Source of the DNA: Escherichia phage ECP_WGS_SA1
DNA length: 64,000 bases
Sequence record: PQ604604
Reading direction: 5' to 3' (one strand)
Below the pieces are notes generated by a model, which was not told the origin of the DNA, did no database searches, and saw only the letters and a list, made by a program, of their open reading frames with translations. Both the position numbers and the translations under genes were made by a program. Each line of letters opens with the position of its first letter. The first letter of the stretch is position 1. Positions 1 to 62,102 of the stretch are shown here, one piece after another.

Positions 1-360
1 ATTTTGAATTAATTTAAATTAATTTTTTTCTACATCCTCATACTTATACTAAACTTATATTTATACGTATTATCCGTAAGATATAAGTAAAAACAAAGAC
101 TTGCGGCAATACGGATGATACGTCATGATACGCTTCAACCAGCCAGCAGCGGCTAAGTCATTGATTTGCATAACAAGCGGCGAAAGGGATGGATTTCTTT
201 TATGCGTATCAAACAGTACACCACGCACCACGGTCCGATATTCATTCAGCACTATGATTTATGTACGTTTACAGCCAATTTGAACATCAATCTGCACTTG
301 AATATAATGTTCATTCATTGTATAATTCACACTATTAATTTGCACTATGGGATTTGCACT

Positions 361-834
361 ATGAGTCAAGATTATGTAGCAATGCCTGAAGACTTTGAAG
401 ACCCGCGATTTGCAGAGCATAATCAGGCATTATTCGATGAGTTCATTGACCTTGTTATTCAGGGCCATGACATGCGCGCAGCTTTTGCACTAGTATTTGG
501 CATGGAGGTTGCGACCGATAACTACACTGGCCAGCGAATCCTGTGCACGCAGCGCAACCCGTACTACAAGATGCGCTACAAAAAGCGTATGGAAGAGATG
601 CCATTGAAGGAATTGTGGAGTGTAAAGAGTTCCATCCACAATTTAGTGAAGCTTGTGCGTGATCCAGAAGTCGCGGCTTCAGCCAAGCTTAATGCCATTC
701 GTGAACTGAATATCATCTACGGCATCACGATGATTGATGAAAATGGCAATAGTAAAATGGGCCGTTCCATGGACGATTTCTACAAGGATTTTGGAGAGGC
801 AGCCAAAGAGGGTGAGCAATTCTCCCGCCACTAG
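361..834 (+). CDS. Hypothetical protein, 157 aa; start chosen at the ATG embedded in the second repeat copy
   Basis: In-frame part of ORF 166..834; the region upstream of 361 is repeat-rich and looks non-coding. Confidence 0.5.
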   Translation: MSQDYVAMPEDFEDPRFAEHNQALFDEFIDLVIQGHDMRAAFALVFGMEVATDNYTGQRILCTQRNPYYKMRYKKRMEEMPLKELWSVKSSIHNLVKLVRDPEVAASAKLNAIRELNIIYGITMIDENGNSKMGRSMDDFYKDFGEAAKEGEQFSRH

Positions 835-851
835 CCAATTTGCACTATAAA

Positions 852-889
852 ACGGCCCTAGAACACATTTTCTCCACTTCTAGGGCCGT
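852..889. other. Perfect 12-bp inverted repeat ACGGCCCTAGAA / TTCTAGGGCCGT with a 14-nt loop
   Basis: Read directly; lies just after the stop of CDS 361..834; no clear U-tract on the + strand. Confidence 0.5.
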
Positions 890-948
890 TGGTAATACGA
901 CGGGGAAGGCTGCAACCATAAACGCGTTATAAAGTGTATTATTATAAG

Positions 949-1212
949 TCATCTTTTAGTCGCTTTACGTAACAATTTACGACCTTCCGCCGTCCAGTCG
1001 AACGACTCCACCAGCAGATTTGCACTATAACCTAAGACGATGCGCCCCTTCTCGTTATCGACCCGCCAACAAGTCTCGAATAGCATTCGATTTGCACTAT
1101 TAACTATCGCCGCAACGCGCGTTGGGTAAGCGCAATTTGCACTATGGTCGTAAAGGGATAAGGTGCGACCACTGCCGATGGACAACGTAGCGATGAGAAT
1201 AAGCGTATTCAT
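949..1212 (-). CDS. Hypothetical small protein, 87 aa, hydrophobic N-terminus; contains three antisense copies of the repeat motif
   Basis: ORF with GGTGG upstream of the ATG; may instead be non-coding repeat DNA. Confidence 0.3.
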   Translation of the reverse strand: MNTLILIATLSIGSGRTLSLYDHSANCAYPTRVAAIVNSANRMLFETCWRVDNEKGRIVLGYSANLLVESFDWTAEGRKLLRKATKR

Positions 1213-1262
1213 AAGCCACCAATTTGCACTATGAAAAGCGACCCCGAAGGGCCGCCATTCGA

Positions 1263-1889
1263 TTAGATAATCTGGAAGGTGTAGGACTTGTTGCCGAACT
1301 CGAAGTTCAAGCGCCCAGCTTCCTTAAGCTTCATGCGGAAGCGAATGTGTTTGCTATCCGGTAAGCCCAGCGCGGCGAACGCTACGCGGACCGATTTGAA
1401 CTCGCCTACACCCTCGACCATAACGGCGTTACGGGTGAGACGCTTTTGTGCCACTTCCTTGTTATCCCAACTTTTTGCAATACCTTCGCTATTAGAACGG
1501 CGATGGGAAGGAGTTCCATTTTGCACTACGCAATTTGCACTATCGTTTAGGCCGCTCTTAACGAAGGCTTCATACTCTTCGTCGGTCATCGCGTCGAGTT
1601 CTTCCTGAGTCGGCTCGGCCTTTTTAACGACCGCACGCGCCTTATGCGTTTTTACATCGCTGGACACTTCCTCGCGCGGCTTCGCGTCGGGGATGGGCAA
1701 TTCGTTGGACGGCTCATCGAGCGCGTTTAAGGACTCGATTAACGCGATGACGCGAGTCTCAGCGGTGCGACGGTCCACAAACTTCTTAATCGGTTTTGAG
1801 CCGGAGTTGGCATTATAGAATGCAACGAGGTCGGCGGTCTTAGTTGCGATAACGTCGCCGCTAGTAGAAAAGCGATTTAAGCTAACCAT
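1263..1889 (-). CDS. Hypothetical protein, 208 aa
   Basis: ORF with AGGAG-TTTATT-ATG initiation context. Confidence 0.55.
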   Translation of the reverse strand: MVSLNRFSTSGDVIATKTADLVAFYNANSGSKPIKKFVDRRTAETRVIALIESLNALDEPSNELPIPDAKPREEVSSDVKTHKARAVVKKAEPTQEELDAMTDEEYEAFVKSGLNDSANCVVQNGTPSHRRSNSEGIAKSWDNKEVAQKRLTRNAVMVEGVGEFKSVRVAFAALGLPDSKHIRFRMKLKEAGRLNFEFGNKSYTFQII

Positions 1890-1969
1890 AATAAACTCCT
1901 ATTTGTTAGGGCGCTAGGCGCGAAAGAATTTTATTAAAGCGCCGCGCACGACGCTCTAAAAATCCTCTC

Positions 1970-2284
1970 TTACTCTTCGTCGTCTTCGATTAATTCGAAG
2001 GCGAAGGCATAAGCTTTGCTATCGTAATTAACTAAAACGGCGAGTTCGAACTCGTTAATAAACGCCGTTTTACCGCATAAATTTAATTCCGCATCGACTT
2101 CGAAGAATCCGTTTTCGTCGCGCTCTAAGCGAGAAGCAGCGAGTTGCTCGATTACCGTCGCGTCGTTAATTTCTTCGCCTAAGCGAACGCCGGAGAATTT
2201 CGCGAGAATTTCGCCGTAAGTAAGCGTAACACCCTGGACTTCGGCGGTTGCGTTTTCGAGGGTGAAGCGGGTAACGATAGCCAT
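1970..2284 (-). CDS. Hypothetical acidic protein, 104 aa
   Basis: ORF with AGGAG-CTTATT-ATG initiation context almost identical to the neighbouring gene 1263..1889. Confidence 0.55.
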   Translation of the reverse strand: MAIVTRFTLENATAEVQGVTLTYGEILAKFSGVRLGEEINDATVIEQLAASRLERDENGFFEVDAELNLCGKTAFINEFELAVLVNYDSKAYAFAFELIEDDEE

Positions 2285-2377
2285 AATAAGCTCCTAGTTG
2301 GGAGAGGCGTTAACGACCTATTCGTTAACTCATCCCGTCCCGATATGAGTACATTATAATATAGTGTAGAAAAAAGT

Positions 2378-2466
2378 AAAGCACTTTTTCGATAAAAATG
2401 CGATAAATTATTTTATCTTTTTTCTTTACTTCTTCGTACACTCGCGTATACTTGTTTATATCGAGA
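2378..2466 (+). promoter_or_regulatory. Promoter-like repeat unit A: near-palindromic AAAGCACTTT site, CTTTACTTCTTCGTACACT (2424-2442), GTTTATATCGAGA (2454-2466)
   Basis: Near-identical copy at 2811-2864; lies upstream of CDS 2509..2811. Confidence 0.45.
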
Positions 2467-2508
2467 CGGGCGATGGCCCTTTCTTCTACTAGCATCGGGA
2501 GCTTTATT

Positions 2509-2811
2509 ATGACTACTTTAATCTCTTCCATCCTTACTTACGACGAAGACCGCTTAACCGTTCGCTCTCTTATCGCCGCCGTTAACGCGGAACTAGAATC
2601 TAGCGCCATCAAGGTCCGTGCCGTTGCCTTCGTCGGCCTTTCCTTCGACGATATTAAGTATGCAGAGTATAGCGCCATTCGCGTTGTTACTACCGACGAT
2701 AACGCCGTTACCCTTATCGAGACGGTTACGCCGCGCGGCGAAGCGTTAATTATCGTCGAGTATATCGACGTAGAAGGCGATAAAGCTTATAAATATTTTA
2801 TCGCAGAATAA
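2509..2811 (+). CDS. Hypothetical small acidic protein, 100 aa
   Basis: ORF with GGGAG about 7 nt upstream of the ATG at 2509. Confidence 0.5.
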   Translation: MTTLISSILTYDEDRLTVRSLIAAVNAELESSAIKVRAVAFVGLSFDDIKYAEYSAIRVVTTDDNAVTLIETVTPRGEALIIVEYIDVEGDKAYKYFIAE

Positions 2812-2864
2812 CGAAAAGTGCTTTACTTCTTCGTACACTAAGACTATAATGTTTTATATCGAGA
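2811..2864 (+). promoter_or_regulatory. Promoter-like repeat unit B (CGAAAAGTGCTTTACTTCTTCGTACACT ... GTTTTATATCGAGA)
   Basis: Direct repeat of unit A; lies upstream of CDS 2918. Confidence 0.45.
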
Positions 2865-2917
2865 GGGGATGAGGTAGCGAATAGGTCGCTACCCTCCCGA
2901 CTAACTAGGAGAATATT

Positions 2918-2987
2918 ATGATTACTTTATCCGCTATCCGCGCCGCTCGCGTCGAAACTTCCGAAAACTCTAACGTATTTGGCGAAA
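2918..2987 (+). CDS. Hypothetical protein, 5' end only (runs into an N-run)
   Basis: ATG with AGGAG upstream; N-terminus MITLSAIRAARVE resembles that of 2509 (MTTLISSILTYDE). Confidence 0.4.
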
Positions 2988-3187
2988 NNNNNNNNNNNNN
3001 NNNNNNNNNNNNNNNNNNNNNNNNNNNNNNNNNNNNNNNNNNNNNNNNNNNNNNNNNNNNNNNNNNNNNNNNNNNNNNNNNNNNNNNNNNNNNNNNNNNN
3101 NNNNNNNNNNNNNNNNNNNNNNNNNNNNNNNNNNNNNNNNNNNNNNNNNNNNNNNNNNNNNNNNNNNNNNNNNNNNNNNNNNNNNNN
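2988..3187. other. Run of N (masked or unknown bases)
   Basis: Read directly. Confidence 0.99.
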
Positions 3188-3370
3188 TTTAAAATCGTCT
3201 CCTTATAATACCCTTCCGTTACTAATAGGCCGCGCTTAGTCGCGGCTTTTCTTCGTCCCTATCTCGATGCGCTTCTCCGCGAAAACTCCTTTATCCTTCC
3301 CTTCGTCGTCGCATAATCTTCGTCGAGATGCGCCTTAGTTCGCATAACAGGTATTACGTTAAATGGAGAA

Positions 3371-3452
3371 CATCGCGTAAGTCCTTGTTTTATATAGACA
3401 CCTATATCGGACCGTTAGGGAGGGTCGCGTAAGTCGTTGTTTTATAAAGGCG
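3371..3452 (+). repeat. Two direct copies of CGCGTAAGTCnTTGTTTTATA in an ORF-poor segment
   Basis: Read directly; shares the TTTTATA core with the 2454 and 2851 elements. Confidence 0.6.
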
Positions 3453-3725
3453 CAAAACTTTCCCTTCGTTCCGAACTAAAACGAGAAATATGCCGACCCT
3501 TCGCCCGAAAATAGTACGCATACGAAATTACCGACATCTAGAATAATCCGCGCCGATATTATCCTACACGCAATCATTAGCCTTCGAATCATTATGCTTC
3601 ATATTATTATGCTTCGAATCATTCGCTTTCGAATTGTAACGCTGAAAACTGTAACGGCGATTGATTATTGCGTTCGTGTGGTTTTTATGGCATGGGTCTT
3701 TTGGTGCGTTTTGGTACTTGATGAA

Positions 3726-3836
3726 ATTTGCAGTACACTAATCAAAATACGACACATTTGGTCCACTAACTTTTCAAAGAAAAAGTCCTAGACAGTACCG
3801 TACTATTTTGTGCCCACAGTAAATTTGCAGTACACT
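3726..3836 (+). repeat. Two copies of ATTTGCAGTACACT (3726-3739, 3823-3836), a variant of the ATTTGCACTAT family
   Basis: Read directly. Confidence 0.7.
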
Positions 3837-3905
3837 CCTGCGCGGCAGACAAAATAAAGGGCCGCCACAGCGACCCACGATTCACGGTTAAATCAGCAAC
3901 ACCCA

Positions 3906-4286
3906 CTATTCGCTCTTATGGGCATCACCAAAGCCATCCGCAATCTGGCTGATCAATGATTCAATGGACACAGTTTTACCAATTGATCGAGCGGTAATAG
4001 CAAGCATATTATCAATCAAACCATGATTGGATGCATATGATCCAGGTTTTGAATCATCTTCATGACAACCAAAAAGCTGGTCGCGAAGACTTTCAAGAGA
4101 ACGCTCAATATTTTCCAGCTTCTCTTCTAAATCAGATTGGCGACGTAAAACCCATGTTAAGTCGCGGTTGCCGACTTCCAATCCATCAGAATCGCAAGAT
4201 GGAACGTCAATTTTGATACTTCCACCAAAGGCCATTCCGCTGCCTTTAGCATATGTGCCGTGAATAGAATCATTCTTATTTGACAT
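3906..4286 (-). CDS. Hypothetical protein, about 126 aa
   Basis: ORF 3906..4316; start moved to the Met preceded by GAAAGG. Confidence 0.45.
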   Translation of the reverse strand: MSNKNDSIHGTYAKGSGMAFGGSIKIDVPSCDSDGLEVGNRDLTWVLRRQSDLEEKLENIERSLESLRDQLFGCHEDDSKPGSYASNHGLIDNMLAITARSIGKTVSIESLISQIADGFGDAHKSE

Positions 4287-4359
4287 ATCATTACCTTTCA
4301 TGAGGGTGATTAACAATAACTATAATAAAGCCGCATAGCGCGGCATTCAAATCGGTTTG

Positions 4360-4572
4360 TTAATTGTAACGATTGGATTCATCAATCGATACCAACTGCG
4401 CAGGGTCGCCGGATACTGTCGCACCGATAACGCCCATCTGCTGAAAGAACTCTGAATAAACTTCCTTCCAGTATTTACGCGCTGCTTTCTGAGCCTGTCC
4501 TTTGCGCTTGAAGCTTTTACCTTTTACCTTGAAAGATGAAACGGTCGCTTGCCGCGCGATACTCCACCACAC
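4360..4572 (-). CDS. Hypothetical basic protein, 70 aa
   Basis: ORF only. Confidence 0.35.
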   Translation of the reverse strand: MWWSIARQATVSSFKVKGKSFKRKGQAQKAARKYWKEVYSEFFQQMGVIGATVSGDPAQLVSIDESNRYN

Positions 4573-5321: not shown

Positions 5322-5666
5322 NNNNNNNNNNNNNNNNNNNNNNNNNNNNNNNNNNNNNNNNNNNNNNNNNNNNNNNNNNNNNNNNNNNNNNNNNNNNNNN
5401 NNNNNNNNNNNNNNNNNNNNNNNNNNNNNNNNNNNNNNNNNNNNNNNNNNNNNNNNNNNNNNNNNNNNNNNNNNNNNNNNNNNNNNNNNNNNNNNNNNNN
5501 NNNNNNNNNNNNNNNNNNNNNNNNNNNNNNNNNNNNNNNNNNNNNNNNNNNNNNNNNNNNNNNNNNNNNNNNNNNNNNNNNNNNNNNNNNNNNNNNNNNN
5601 NNNNNATACACCTCACTTGTTAACGTATAATGAGTATAACTTAATAGCGCATAAAGTAAAGGCGCT

Positions 5667-7070
5667 NNNAGCGCCTTGAGTGAATTATTTNGCTGCNTTC
5701 AGCGCGACTATNTCTGNNNNNNNNNNNNNNNNNNNNNNNNNNNNNNNNNNNNNNNNNNNNNNNNNNNNNNNNNNNNNNNNNNNNNNNNNNNNNNNNNNNN
5801 NNNNNNNNNNNNNNNNNNNNNNNNNNNNNNNNNNNNNNNNNNNNNNNNNNNNNNNNNNNNNNNNNNNNNNNNNNNNNNNNNNNNNNNNNNNNNNNNNNNN
5901 NNNNNNNNNNNNNNNNNNNNNNNNNNNNNNNNNNNNNNNNNNNNNNNNNNNNNNNNNNNNNNNNNNNNNNNNNNNNNNNNNNNNNNNNNNNNNNNNNNNN
6001 NNNNNNNNNNNNNNNNNNNNNNNNNNNNNNNNNNNNNNNNNNNNNNNNNNNNNNNNNNNNNNNNNNNNNNNNNNNNNNNNNNNNNNNNNNNNNNNNNNNN
6101 NNNNNNNNNNNNNNNNNNNNNNNNNNNNNNNNNNNNNNNNNNNNNNNNNNNNNNNNNNNNNNNNNNNNNNNNNNNNNNNNNNNNNNNNNNNNNNNNNNNN
6201 NNNNNNNNNNNNNNNNNNNNNNNNNNNNNNNNNNNNNNNNNNNNNNNNNNNNNNNNNNNNNNNNNNNNNNNNNNNNNNNNNNNNNNNNNNNNNNNNNNNN
6301 NNNNNNNNNNNNNNNNNNNNNNNNNNNNNNNNNNNNNNNNNNNNNNNNNNNNNNNNNNNNNNNNNNNNNNNNNNNNNNNNNNNNNNNNNNNNNNNNNNNN
6401 NNNNNNNNNNNNNNNNNNNNNNNNNNNNNNNNNNNNNNNNNNNNNNNNNNNNNNNNNNNNNNNNNNNNNNNNNNNNNNNNNNNNNNNNNNNNNNNNNNNN
6501 NNNNNNNNNNNNNNNNNNNNNNNNNNNNNNNNNNNNNNNNNNNNNNNNNNNNNNNNNNNNNNNNNNNNNNNNNNNNNNNNNNNNNNNNNNNNNNNNNNNN
6601 NNNNNNNNNNNNNNNNNNNNNNNNNNNNNNNNNNNNNNNNNNNNNNNNNNNNNNNNNNNNNNNNNNNNNNNNNNNNNNNNNNNNNNNNNNNNNNNNNNNN
6701 NNNNNNNNNNNNNNNNNNNNNNNNNNNNNNNNNNNNNNNNNNNNNNNNNNNNNNNNNNNNNNNNNNNNNNNNNNNNNNNNNNNNNNNNNNNNNNNNNNNN
6801 NNNNNNNNNNNNNNNNNNNNNNNNNNNNNNNNNNNNNNNNNNNNNNNNNNNNNNNNNNNNNNNNNNNNNNNNNNNNNNNNNNNNNNNNNNNNNNNNNNNN
6901 NNNNNNNNNNNNNNNNNNNNNNNNNNNNNNNNNNNNNNNNNNNNNNNNNNNNNNNNNNNNNNNNNNNNNNNNNNNNNNNNNNNNNNNNNNNNNNNNNNNN
7001 NNNNNNNNNNNNNNNNNNNNNNNNNNNNNNNNNNNNNNNNNNNNNNNNNNNNNNNNNNNNNNNNNNNNNN
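5667..7070. other. Almost fully masked block of N; adjacent N-runs at 5322-5605, 7194-7307 and 7354-7611
   Basis: Read directly. Confidence 0.99.
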
Positions 7071-8009
7071 NAGCAATTGTCCGTCTGCAACGACTTCATA
7101 CGGTTGAATATATGCACGACTGTCACGNAAGTGAAAATCACCAACNCCATAGTTCATNACACCGTTCATGCTTGGGCCAACGGTGCCTGTGTTNNNNNNN
7201 NNNNNNNNNNNNNNNNNNNNNNNNNNNNNNNNNNNNNNNNNNNNNNNNNNNNNNNNNNNNNNNNNNNNNNNNNNNNNNNNNNNNNNNNNNNNNNNNNNNN
7301 NNNNNNNTGATCCTGTGCCNCCCATGGAAGTTGGGACGATGCTTTGATCAGCNNNNNNNNNNNNNNNNNNNNNNNNNNNNNNNNNNNNNNNNNNNNNNNN
7401 NNNNNNNNNNNNNNNNNNNNNNNNNNNNNNNNNNNNNNNNNNNNNNNNNNNNNNNNNNNNNNNNNNNNNNNNNNNNNNNNNNNNNNNNNNNNNNNNNNNN
7501 NNNNNNNNNNNNNNNNNNNNNNNNNNNNNNNNNNNNNNNNNNNNNNNNNNNNNNNNNNNNNNNNNNNNNNNNNNNNNNNNNNNNNNNNNNNNNNNNNNNN
7601 NNNNNNNNNNNGATGCACCAGCATTTGCTGATTGATGATATTGACCAAACCATGAACCAGTCAAGGCATTGAGATTTATTCCGTTAGGAATCTCTCCAAA
7701 GTTTCGGACAGTACCCGTCAAAGTTGCGGCAGTGGTTCGAATAGAAAGCATGTCGCCAGCCGCCCATGCACGCGCTGCAGTTCCTTCCTGTGCACGCTGC
7801 ACGGTCAGGACGTTTCCAACAACGGCTGTTACTGTGACGATTTCGAATTGGAGGCCTGTTGCGGCGTCAACGATTGTCGCCACTACACGCTCGTTTGCGC
7901 CCAAGGTCGGAAAGCCCGACCCTGAGCGAATTGTGATTGTGGTGTCTGAAGTCGTCGTTGGCTGAGCGAGCGCGACCTCAAAGTTGTTTTTGAATATTAG
8001 CCTTGGCAT
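5685..8009 (-). CDS. Putative tail fibre or receptor-binding-like protein; largely masked by N, 3' end uncertain
   Basis: Long ORF with GAGGA upstream of the ATG at 8009; readable N-terminal 130 aa is rich in T/S/G/V as in phage fibre N-termini. Confidence 0.4.
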   Translation of the reverse strand: MPRLIFKNNFEVALAQPTTTSDTTITIRSGSGFPTLGANERVVATIVDAATGLQFEIVTVTAVVGNVLTVQRAQEGTAARAWAAGDMLSIRTTAATLTGTVRNFGEIPNGINLNALTGSWFGQYHQSANAGAXXXXXXXXXXXXXXXXXXXXXXXXXXXXXXXXXXXXXXXXXXXXXXXXXXXXXXXXXXXXXXXXXXXXXXXXXXXXXXXXXXXXXXXADQSIVPTSMXGTGSXXXXXXXXXXXXXXXXXXXXXXXXXXXXXXXXXXXXXXNTGTVGPSMNGXMNYXVGDFHXRDSRAYIQPYEVVADGQLXXXXXXXXXXXXXXXXXXXXXXXXXXXXXXXXXXXXXXXXXXXXXXXXXXXXXXXXXXXXXXXXXXXXXXXXXXXXXXXXXXXXXXXXXXXXXXXXXXXXXXXXXXXXXXXXXXXXXXXXXXXXXXXXXXXXXXXXXXXXXXXXXXXXXXXXXXXXXXXXXXXXXXXXXXXXXXXXXXXXXXXXXXXXXXXXXXXXXXXXXXXXXXXXXXXXXXXXXXXXXXXXXXXXXXXXXXXXXXXXXXXXXXXXXXXXXXXXXXXXXXXXXXXXXXXXXXXXXXXXXXXXXXXXXXXXXXXXXXXXXXXXXXXXXXXXXXXXXXXXXXXXXXXXXXXXXXXXXXXXXXXXXXXXXXXXXXXXXXXXXXXXXXXXXXXXXXXXXXXXXXXXXXXXXXXXXXXXXXXXXXXXXXXXXXXXXXXXXXXXXXXXXXXXXXXXXXXXXXXXXXXXXXXXXXXXXXIVALXAXK

Positions 8010-8585: not shown

Positions 8586-8819
8586 TCACAGTTCACCTCC
8601 AGATTGCAAAACAAGTCCCGCATAGAGGATTGCTAAAGCTAAAGGCGCACCACTTCCAGCTTCTCTATTCTCTTTGATTTGAAGAGTGTCCTTAAGGAAT
8701 TGCAGCTGAACGTTGAATTCATTTTCAATTCCAAGCACTCCAGCTAATTCTTTTACAGAATCTGCATATGCCTTGTCTAGCACTTCTTTTGGTACTGTTA
8801 AAGTCAATTCATTTGCCAT
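8586..8819 (-). CDS. Hypothetical protein, about 77 aa
   Basis: ORF with purine-rich RBS-like sequence. Confidence 0.35.
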   Translation of the reverse strand: MANELTLTVPKEVLDKAYADSVKELAGVLGIENEFNVQLQFLKDTLQIKENREAGSGAPLALAILYAGLVLQSGGEL

Positions 8820-9030
8820 TTTCTTTCCACTCCACAAATGCACTTCCACTTGTTTCTCTATTTAGCAGGTATCTGCCGCGCATTCCATGAAGGCTGAACT
8901 CAACCGTCGATGGATTAGATTTTGAAAGCCACATCGCTTGACCGTCGAACGGTCCGCCAACGCATGTGTATTTAGCCTTTGGCTCACTCCTTTTGGGTCG
9001 CTTTGCCCGCTCTTTGATTGATAGTCTCAT
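8809..9030 (-). CDS. Hypothetical protein, 73 aa
   Basis: ORF; stop/start packing with neighbours. Confidence 0.35.
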   Translation of the reverse strand: MRLSIKERAKRPKRSEPKAKYTCVGGPFDGQAMWLSKSNPSTVEFSLHGMRGRYLLNRETSGSAFVEWKENGK

Positions 9031-61866: not shown

Positions 61867-62102
61867 TGGAAGATTATATTAACGCCATGTATATTGCATT
61901 CTATGTCGTTCAACTTCCCAATGGCGCGGTATTTTATGGCGAGTACACCTTTGACGTTCAATATGACGTTTCAGAGCGTACAGTGTTAACAAGAGAGTTG
62001 ATTGCGGACCTTAAGGACGACATCAAACGCGTCGCGCGGCAGCAGTTCAATTTGGATGACACAGTCATCGTTCGTATAACCGGAATAACAGAGGTGCAGT
62101 GA
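61866..62102 (+). CDS. Hypothetical protein, 78 aa
   Basis: ORF with stop/start overlap. Confidence 0.4.
   Translation: MEDYINAMYIAFYVVQLPNGAVFYGEYTFDVQYDVSERTVLTRELIADLKDDIKRVARQQFNLDDTVIVRITGITEVQ

Follow-up and report, generated by a model that had tools for sequence, protein, structure and literature searches.

The 64,000-nucleotide stretch of Escherichia phage ECP_WGS_SA1 analysed here (record PQ604604; hereafter the window) carries near its left end a family of short direct repeats, ATTTGCACTAT, which lie on one strand only and are arranged around and within terS, the gene for the small terminase subunit (TerS). The array sits inside the left copy of a direct terminal repeat (DTR), close to the physical end of the genome, and its counterparts flank terS in other phage genera. 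On the basis of this anatomy we propose that the repeats are candidate TerS binding sites, forming a one-way array comparable to cosB or pac that would mark the concatemer junction for packaging, a proposal to which we assign about an even chance of being right.

Exact copies of ATTTGCACTAT start at positions 338, 352, 838, 1018, 1090, 1135, 1222 and 1533, all on the plus strand (n = 8), against 0.08 expected by chance, and none of 100 dinucleotide-preserving shuffles reached eight. Two near-copies with the same 9-mer core, TTTTGCACTAG at 483 and TTTTGCACTAC at 1519, complete an array spanning 338–1543, in which TTYGCACTA occurs ten times on the plus strand and not once on the minus strand of the window. 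Two pairs, 338/352 and 1519/1533, share a tandem spacing of 14 bp. An earlier note on this DNA had described at least eight exact copies and a tandem variant within 1.2 kb, always on the plus strand, whether in plus-strand open reading frames (ORFs), antisense in minus-strand ORFs or between genes. The count over both strands bears this out: there are eight exact copies and two variants, none on the minus strand, all three contexts are occupied, and the whole family is confined to 338–1543. The note had also placed the start codon of the coding sequence at 361 inside a copy, and its ATG is indeed made up of the last two bases of the copy at 352–362 and the following G.

A search of both strands of the 64-kb window gave no further match to ATTTGCACTAT. 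The array occurs once per genome unit, with no copies in the rest of the window or in the remaining unique DNA of the related Escherichia phage vB_EcoM_WFH (WFH); outside its second terminal-repeat copy, WFH (MK373776) has none at 62000–67582, of which 64001–67582 lies beyond the window. The bare hexamer GCACTA is found outside window positions 1–1600 five times on the plus strand and six times on the minus strand, where composition alone would predict about 14.7 per strand, a scarcity consistent with avoidance of stray sites.

The array is conserved across genera. A tblastn search detected TerS homologues in 358 phage records. Most of these are Pbunavirus (39% identity), and there are further matches in phages of Pantoea, Serratia, Xanthomonas, Burkholderia, Salmonella and Aeromonas. 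The Pantoea phages Kyle (L020) and PA1 (L005), of the genus Kylevirus, encode a TerS 40–44% identical to that of the window and carry 10–13 copies of YYYGCACTA, all on the terS strand and within approximately 0.9–1.0 kb, at and after terS. Four more lineages, found through TerS in public assemblies, have 9, 10, 9 and 6 copies at TerS identities of 70, 53, 50 and 45%, respectively, in the same place and orientation as in the window. Pooled over 2-kb regions of the seven lineages, all 69 copies share the strand of terS, with none on the opposite strand, and have an invariant core of GCACTA after three pyrimidines. Relative to the terS start, the arrays of all seven extend from about −115 to about +1170 and span 0.9–1.2 kb, the window copies running from −22 to +1173. 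Intergeneric blastn recovers short coding pieces only, none of which holds a copy, and this rules out the repeats as a by-product of general DNA conservation.

The searches have a defined reach. TerS-based scans of IMG/VR and metagenomes returned almost only Wifcevirus, the genus of the window, and an alignment of eight genera was too divergent to serve as a query. Among the matches listed in a search with the protein of a neighbouring gene (PHROG 4730), all were 97–100% identical. Scanning IMG/VR for three spaced copies of the motif gave 33 loci, two of them Wifcevirus and the rest nearly all regular tandem arrays in unrelated contigs, with periods such as 66, 21–23, 45, 30 and 9 bp; these are uninformative because none encodes a TerS relative.

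The position of the array at a genome end follows from close relatives. The first 2,980 bases of the window are 99.4% identical to WFH, beginning at position 1 of that record, and 92–97% identical to 26 other Wifcevirus records. Since WFH bases 1–3701 recur at 67583–71283 with 0 mismatches, window position 1 is the left physical genome end, and the DTR ends on the right between 3701 and 3702. The terminal repeat of phages WFC and WFH is given as approximately 3.7 kb (PMC6563267), and PhageTerm predicts a 3,673-bp DTR for the close relative Mansfield. The whole array thus lies inside the DTR, its first copy 337 bp from the left physical end. N-masked runs in the window (2988–3187, 5322–5605, 5717–7071, 7194–7307, 7353–7611 and about 25 shorter ones) affect part of the coding sequence 2918–3208 and much of the tail-fibre gene 5685–8009; the masked DTR gene was read from WFH.

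The product of 361–834 is an E217-type TerS. In a phmmer search its residues 3–147 match PDB 7UXE, 'Small terminase' (10 chains), at E = 9e-33, the entry for the TerS decamer from Pseudomonas phage E217 (PMC9611059). The protein falls in PHROG 4783 and is annotated as terminase small subunit in Mansfield, with no Pfam match. The large terminase (TerL) is encoded at about 9.5–10.9 kb with no TerS candidate beside it, leaving 361–834 as the sole TerS candidate. A consensus scan predicts two overlapping terS promoters, TTGAAC-17-TATAAT at 280–308 and TTGAAT-17-TATAAT at 298–326, and a TATAAT lies 30–45 bp upstream of the terS ATG in eight of the nine lineages compared, the exception being Pbunavirus Pa193, with nothing but a TACAAT about 95 bp upstream. 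For transcripts from these promoters, the pair at 338–362 would lie at approximately +5 to +30 and would overlap both the ribosome-binding region and the start codon. Copies begin at or just after the terS −10 element in the window and in two of the assembly-derived lineages, L065 (TerS 70% identical) and L068. The features of the repeat and its array are as follows.

1–3701: left copy of the direct terminal repeat, 3,701 bp, placed by the WFH repeat.
280–326, plus strand: two overlapping predicted sigma-70-like terS promoters (10/12 consensus matches each).
338–362, plus strand: tandem copies 338–348 and 352–362, 14 bp apart, just downstream of the terS −10 element.
361–834, plus strand: terS, E217-type small terminase, 157 amino acids, identified by phmmer against PDB 7UXE.
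483–493, plus strand: variant copy TTTTGCACTAG within terS, unchanged across 11 Wifcevirus genomes, with a copy at the same offset (+123) in L065.
838–848, plus strand: copy 3 nt past the terS stop, just before a bidirectional terminator at 853–888 (WFH annotation).
949–1212, minus strand: small ORF of 87 amino acids with a signal-peptide-like N-terminus, containing three copies, each read Ser-Ala-Asn.
1018–1028, plus strand: copy antisense in ORF 949–1212, abutting CCACCAGC, a complement of Chi, at 1008–1015.
1090–1100, plus strand: copy antisense in ORF 949–1212, forcing Ser-Ala-Asn codons, at a position homologous to copies in Kyle (1077) and PA1 (5738).
1135–1145, plus strand: copy antisense in ORF 949–1212.
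1222–1232, plus strand: intergenic copy between the start of ORF 949–1212 and a terminator at 1238–1255.
1263–1889, minus strand: gene for a conserved protein, PHROG 4730, convergent with terS and 48% identical to Kyle gp4.
1519–1543, plus strand: second tandem pair, 1519–1529 (TTTTGCACTAC) and 1533–1543, antisense in a variable linker of gene 1263–1889.

The distribution of the copies among genes indicates that the constraint acts on DNA. ORF 949–1212 is homologous to Kyle gp2 (L020 938–1225, minus strand; 29% identity, E = 1e-12) and to ORF 5599–5883 of PA1 (L005, minus strand), which contains four Ser-Ala-Asn units. Each such unit is encoded by the reverse complement of a repeat copy, and we therefore regard it as a DNA signal overprinted on protein. 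Because some copies occupy homologous codons in the small ORF of the window, Kyle and PA1 while the protein itself stands at 29% identity, these sites have been kept at the nucleotide level. Elsewhere the repeat is read differently: the far end of the array reaches into gene 1263–1889, where one copy encodes Ser-Ala-Asn and the other Val-Val-Gln-Asn, and the copy internal to terS encodes Ala-Phe-Ala-Leu. The same word thus recurs in several reading frames, in both coding senses and in intergenic DNA. A by-product of protein conservation is ruled out by the use of at least three reading frames and by the intergenic copies, and the codons of the Ser-Ala-Asn units are always the same. The DNA-level, orientation-specific signal that the earlier note had suspected is therefore upheld, with a core kept in seven lineages where the flanking DNA is unalignable.

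Variation within the genus points the same way. Across 11 Wifcevirus genomes, 3 of the 88 columns in the first eight copies are variable, versus 13.5% of positions 300–1600 (binomial P = 0.0015). The pair at 338–362 is invariant in these genomes, and L065 has three tandem copies at that place. One of the three changes is in the copy starting at 1018, where five of the 11 genomes carry the T4C variant ATTCGCACTAT, which is the usual Kylevirus form.

The arrangement that these observations describe, an array that is strictly polar, unique in the genome, inside the DTR, and that brackets and enters terS, favours recognition by the terminase. A fixed packaging end lies upstream of terS by 360, 356 and 376 bp in the DTR phages WFH, Kyle and MTx, respectively, and in the PB1-like headful phage Ab27, which lacks a DTR, reads end at a single fixed position (PMC4482731). 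In the Ab27 record terS starts at 616, about 615 bp from the fixed end. Packaging recognition sites of the pac or cos type lie in or beside terS in lambda, P22, Sf6, SPP1 and P1, and the P22 and SPP1 pac sites have been reviewed (PMC9611059). The order seen here, a genome end, 0.34 kb, then one-way repeats running into and past terS, resembles cosN-cosB-Nu1 and, together with an end upstream of terS, is what leads us to propose TerS sites. Terminase recognition repeats, a candidate function, are the only one of the four functions listed in the earlier note that fits this anatomy.

We infer from it that TerS is the binding protein, that packaging has a set direction and that TerS regulates itself. 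A TerS ring of about ten subunits with peripheral helix-turn-helix motifs, as in the E217 homologue, would bind the approximately ten YYYGCACTA sites 0.34–1.5 kb inside the terminal repeat, although the match between ten sites and ten subunits may be a coincidence. The uniform orientation of the sites would set the side on which the large terminase cuts (position 1) and the direction of translocation (rightwards, through terS), and packaging would end after the next terminal repeat with a second sequence-defined cut beside a boundary element of the form GGTAC...GTACACTA. TerS bound at the promoter-proximal copies (338–362) would also hold down its own synthesis; we propose this autorepression because these copies cover the transcription start, the ribosome-binding site and the ATG of terS, and they may act also as an operator. 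Such repression would agree with the reported drop in E217 infectivity when TerS is in excess and with the suggestion that its function is strictly concentration-dependent (PMC9611059).

Several observations weigh against TerS recognition. In vitro, recombinant TerS of E217 did not bind DNA to any appreciable extent (PMC9611059). The array is about 1.2 kb long, irregular and unphased: spacing ranges over 12–608 bp without 10–11-bp phasing (Rayleigh p 0.3–0.9), a period-3 bias arises from copies in ORFs, and a test of the arrays for helical phasing, which would have hinted at DNA wrapped around a ring, found none. Known pac and cosB sites are compact, and a single TerS ring cannot reach every copy. 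The pair 1519/1533 is missing from ECML-117 and vB_Eco4M-7, although gene 1263–1889 is present there, and is accordingly dispensable; the segment that carries it is an insertion relative to the Kyle homologue. Furthermore, the Chi orientation in relatives hints that the left end may be the first to enter the cell and thus the last to be packaged, an order that would be at odds with packaging from left to right.

The motif also has gaps in its distribution that count against the proposal. The word is absent near terS in Pa193, MTx, tabernarius, FoX7, BcepF1, PCSE1, Gekk3-15 and IMG/VR contig L017, whose TerS proteins are more distant; TerS homology alone does not predict the motif, since Pbunavirus, MTx and other genera have homologous TerS without it. 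At the residue aligned with position 65 of the window TerS, all eight motif-bearing proteins have Arg, preceded by Lys or Arg in four and by Gln in four. In the majority of relatives without the motif, the same pair of residues is Glu and then Ser, Ala or Phe, and one of these relatives, L017, has the Arg too; the comparison covers few lineages. Other repeats were seen beside terS in motif-less relatives. MTx (L004 965–1090) has three 21-bp copies of AAAAAATAAGCATGCTTTGTA right after terS, Salmonella phage PCSE1 (L010 360–720) has many AATATCGC and GATATAACG repeats upstream of terS, and Pbunavirus Pa193 (L006 317–430) has AACACTCA three times and CCACCAGC twice upstream of terS.

A last point against TerS is that the small ORF and the PHROG 4730 gene are as syntenic with the array as terS is, so that synteny cannot single out TerS. 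The sites might bind another phage protein, a small early protein encoded in the DTR or the PHROG 4730 product, and have a regulatory or architectural role rather than one in packaging, such as repression of terS and of the leftward genes convergent with it, or organization or protection of the terminal repeat. The DTR does encode several conserved small proteins behind strong sigma-70-like promoters, the PHROG 4730 gene accompanies the array in every lineage, and copies overlap the transcription start and start codon of terS as well as the ribosome-binding region of ORF 949–1212; the lack of DNA binding by E217 TerS in vitro would also be explained. Yet no recognizable DNA-binding domain was found in the candidates (Pfam, PHROGs, PDB), the PHROG 4730 protein having neither a Pfam nor a PDB match, and this protein is present in the motif-less Pbunavirus too. 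A repressor of early genes would be expected at the three strong early promoters (2353–2452 and 2822–2850), where there is no copy, and most copies lie deep within ORFs. We consider this alternative unlikely.

We regard as improbable a role of the array in replicating or recombining the terminal repeat, either as primase-helicase sites or as a polar signal acting with Chi towards concatemers. The alpha protein of P4, acting at ori and crr, is a model for the initiator-site version. The motif is polar and near a DNA end, the primase and helicase genes lie directly upstream of the repeat in concatemer order, and copies are interleaved with same-strand CCACCAGC clusters in Kyle, PA1, L066 and L068. 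Unlike known iterons, however, the copies are irregularly spaced and mostly intragenic, without an adjacent AT-rich unwinding element. The motif does not resemble Chi and is not known to be the target of a sequence-specific nuclease or helicase, and the array in the window contains a single Chi, so that an association with Chi is not obligatory.

The Chi-related sequences are themselves unevenly distributed. CCACCAGC, the complement of Escherichia coli Chi (GCTGGTGG), occurs on the terS strand nine times in the first 2 kb of Kyle, seven times in PA1, four in MTx, six in L066 and five in L068 (L020 255–1972, L005 4861–6433, L004 179–1276, L066 323–1824 and L068 411–1836), in the orientation that is active for RecBCD entering the left genome end. 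The window has one near terS (1008–1015), five in 64 kb without strand bias, and a near-variant, CCACTAGC, at 828–835. Identity of the repeat with Chi is ruled out: ATTTGCACTAT and its complement TAGTGCAAA share nothing with GCTGGTGG, and the Chi complements are separate neighbours. Replication iterons, which the earlier note had listed among possible functions, are unlikely, as these are regularly spaced repeats of about 17–22 bp in non-coding AT-rich DNA beside an initiator gene, whereas here 9–11 bp are conserved at irregularly spaced and mostly intragenic positions with no adjacent AT-rich unwinding region.

That note had also suggested phage-specific promoters or activator boxes resembling the T4 MotA box, which would drive rightward transcription. 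The copies do share TTTGC..TA with the MotA box (TTTGCTTTA versus TTTGCACTA), bear a superficial likeness to a −35 hexamer, and are uniformly oriented. Six of the ten, however, would fire against the local genes, antisense into ORFs 949–1212 and 1263–1889, and one straight into a terminator, while none of the approximately 100 other genes in 64 kb is preceded by a copy. A −10-like hexamer lies 10–15 bp downstream of one copy in ten, compared with 11% of random positions. When the flanks were aligned, as the note had proposed in order to find −10 or −35 elements, no conserved downstream column emerged from 31 sites, and the conserved stretch is only about 9–11 bp. Against the MotA consensus (a/t)(a/t)(a/t)TGCTTtA, which is centred at −30, the core TGCACTA, invariant over 69 sites, has two mismatches to TGCTTTA; there is no sigma-70 −10 element at the spacing that MotA requires, 11–13 bp downstream of the box, and the copies are not placed upstream of genes. 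The annotation of the 105 Mansfield genes includes no RNA polymerase, sigma factor, MotA or AsiA, although no hidden Markov model scan of all ORFs was run. The promoter and MotA readings are largely refuted by these observations and we reject them, keeping for them only a very small residual likelihood.

Two further candidates gave nothing. An Rfam search of positions 1–4500 for structured RNA returned no match at E ≤ 0.1, and an RNA element is also disfavoured because the copies would be present in sense and antisense transcripts alike. In a by-eye comparison of flanks with consensus sequences for host factors (marbox, the NtrC half-site, the sigma-54 −12 element and EcoKI), none fits.

A different element lies at the other end of the DTR.

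3702–3750, plus strand: conserved non-coding element just outside the right DTR boundary, TGGTGCGTTTTGGTACTTGATGAAATTTGCAGTACACTAATCAAAAT, which aligns with Kyle, L065 and PA1.
3821–3836, plus strand: second copy of AAATTTGCAGTACACT, 97 bp after the first, adjoining the terminator of the leftward operon and conserved in Mansfield, Eco4M-7 and Bas98.

The earlier note had counted ATTTGCAGTACACT at 3726 and 3823 as variant members of the repeat family. Both occurrences are present, as part of an exact 16-nt direct repeat, AAATTTGCAGTACACT, at 3724–3739 and 3821–3836, but they are not family members, since they lie outside the DTR and the part conserved in relatives is GTACACTA, not TTTGCA. The first of them, at 3726, is 25 bp beyond the DTR boundary, within the TGGTGCGTTTTGGTACTTGATGAAATTTGCAGTACACTAATCAAAAT block, and its TTTGCA reads TTTGCG in Eco4M-7 and Bas98, where GTACACTAATCA is retained. 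The block takes the form GGTACTT..AATT..GTACACYA and is found in Kyle (L020 3604–3650), L065 (about 8960–9015) and PA1 (L005, about 8630–8685), and in WFH as in Kyle its GTACAC begins 32–33 bp past the boundary. By its sequence, 3702–3750 is best described as a separate conserved boundary element outside the ATTTGCACTAT family, a candidate signal that may position the right-hand terminase cut. GTACACYA recurs close to the left end, 184–216 bp into the repeat (at 216 in the window and 184 in Kyle), and MTx has it at position 9.

The DTR has further features of its own. In concatemer order, an A7 run lies about 10–11 bp before the left DTR cut, both in WFH (gaaaaaaacaattaactcc|ATTTTG; junction read as L003 5514–5583 followed by window 1–40) and in Kyle (ctaaaaaaatgataaattc|ACTTAA; junction read as L021 followed by L020 1–40). 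Four to five tandem 15-bp units, ATCATTAtGCTTCgA, occupy 3573–3647, 55–130 bp inside the right DTR boundary, and Kyle has the first unit, ATCATTAGCCTTC, immediately within its own boundary. The 650-bp non-coding right end of the DTR contains TCGCGTAAGTCnTTGTTTTATAnAG, 25 nt long, as a direct repeat at 3373–3397 and 3425–3449. Mid-DTR, three near-identical strong sigma-70-like promoters (CTTTACTTCTTCGTACACT...TATAAT/TATACT) at 2353–2388 (minus strand), 2424–2452 (plus) and 2821–2850 (plus) are probably immediate-early promoters, and an imperfect 65-nt inverted repeat at 2282–2346 and 2856–2920 spans the ribosome-binding regions. Separate contigs of about 3.3–4.3 kb carrying terS and its neighbours appear in many public assemblies (Logan, ENA), probably because the terminal repeat assembles alone through its double coverage.

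Compared with known packaging systems, the proposed TerS array resembles lambda cosB, where the R sites for gpNu1 are likewise short repeats that flank the initiating cut on the side that is packaged, lying before the small-terminase gene or reaching into it from the genome end, and terS is the first gene after the left end. Lambda, however, has three 16-bp R sites, one inverted, and an IHF site within about 120 bp, whereas here about ten direct sites of 9–11 bp extend over 1.2 kb and three genes; its ends are 12-nt cohesive and its TerS is of the Nu1 type, in contrast to a 3.7-kb direct repeat and an E217-type TerS. With the headful pac sites of P22 (gene 3), Sf6, SPP1 (pacL/pacR) and P1 (seven TGATCA/G hexamers), the array would share a recognition sequence that overlaps terS, and with P1 and SPP1 also several short repeated boxes flanking the cut. 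Those phages have permuted genomes, unlike the exact ends here; their known pac sites measure 22–270 bp compared with approximately 1.2 kb, and the P1 boxes are Dam sites, which the window copies are not. As in T7 and T3, the terminal repeats are exact, both boundaries appear to be cut at sequence-defined positions, and cis signals would lie inside the repeat (pacB and short repeat arrays in T7/T3). The T7 repeat, though, is 160 bp long and without genes, whereas the one here has 3.7 kb with terS and early genes, and there is no sequence similarity between them.

The product of 361–834 is a clear homologue of the E217 TerS, and terS is far from terL in both phages, yet E217 and other Pbunavirus have no YYYGCACTA array near terS, and the E217 TerS is not known to have a DNA site. 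Most recent read-coverage analyses describe Pbunavirus packaging as headful and permuted, and earlier restriction-digest work had suggested defined ends (PMC12390725, PMC12345254). One extended scenario would make the array the specific target of an E217-type decameric TerS, its gain together with the boundary elements having converted a headful machine to one that produces exact 3.7-kb repeats, with the array serving also as an operator to hold TerS at catalytic levels; taken as a whole, we judge this distinctly unlikely.

The repeats are not mentioned in the available papers on Wifcevirus, Mansfield, vB_Eco4M-7 or TerS, and in the literature searched the exact motif appears only in unrelated primers. 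If TerS binding holds, the kind of element, a terminase recognition site beside terS, is a familiar one, but its architecture would be new: about ten dispersed one-way sites over about 1 kb, within a gene-bearing 3.7-kb repeat and beside a TerS of the E217 type. Specific DNA binding has been hard to show for the small terminases of most pac phages (PMC9611059). A defined word of 9–11 bp that seven lineages conserve next to a TerS whose homologue has a solved structure offers a concrete substrate for binding assays, footprinting and cryo-EM. It also sets up a natural comparison of sister groups with homologous TerS and, by annotation, related SPP1-like large terminases, in which the exact terminal repeats of Wifcevirus and Kylevirus stand against the headful packaging of Pbunavirus. 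As Wifcevirus and Pbunavirus are candidates for therapy and synthetic rebooting, knowledge of cis-acting packaging signals and exact boundaries matters when genomes are designed and the risk of transduction is assessed.

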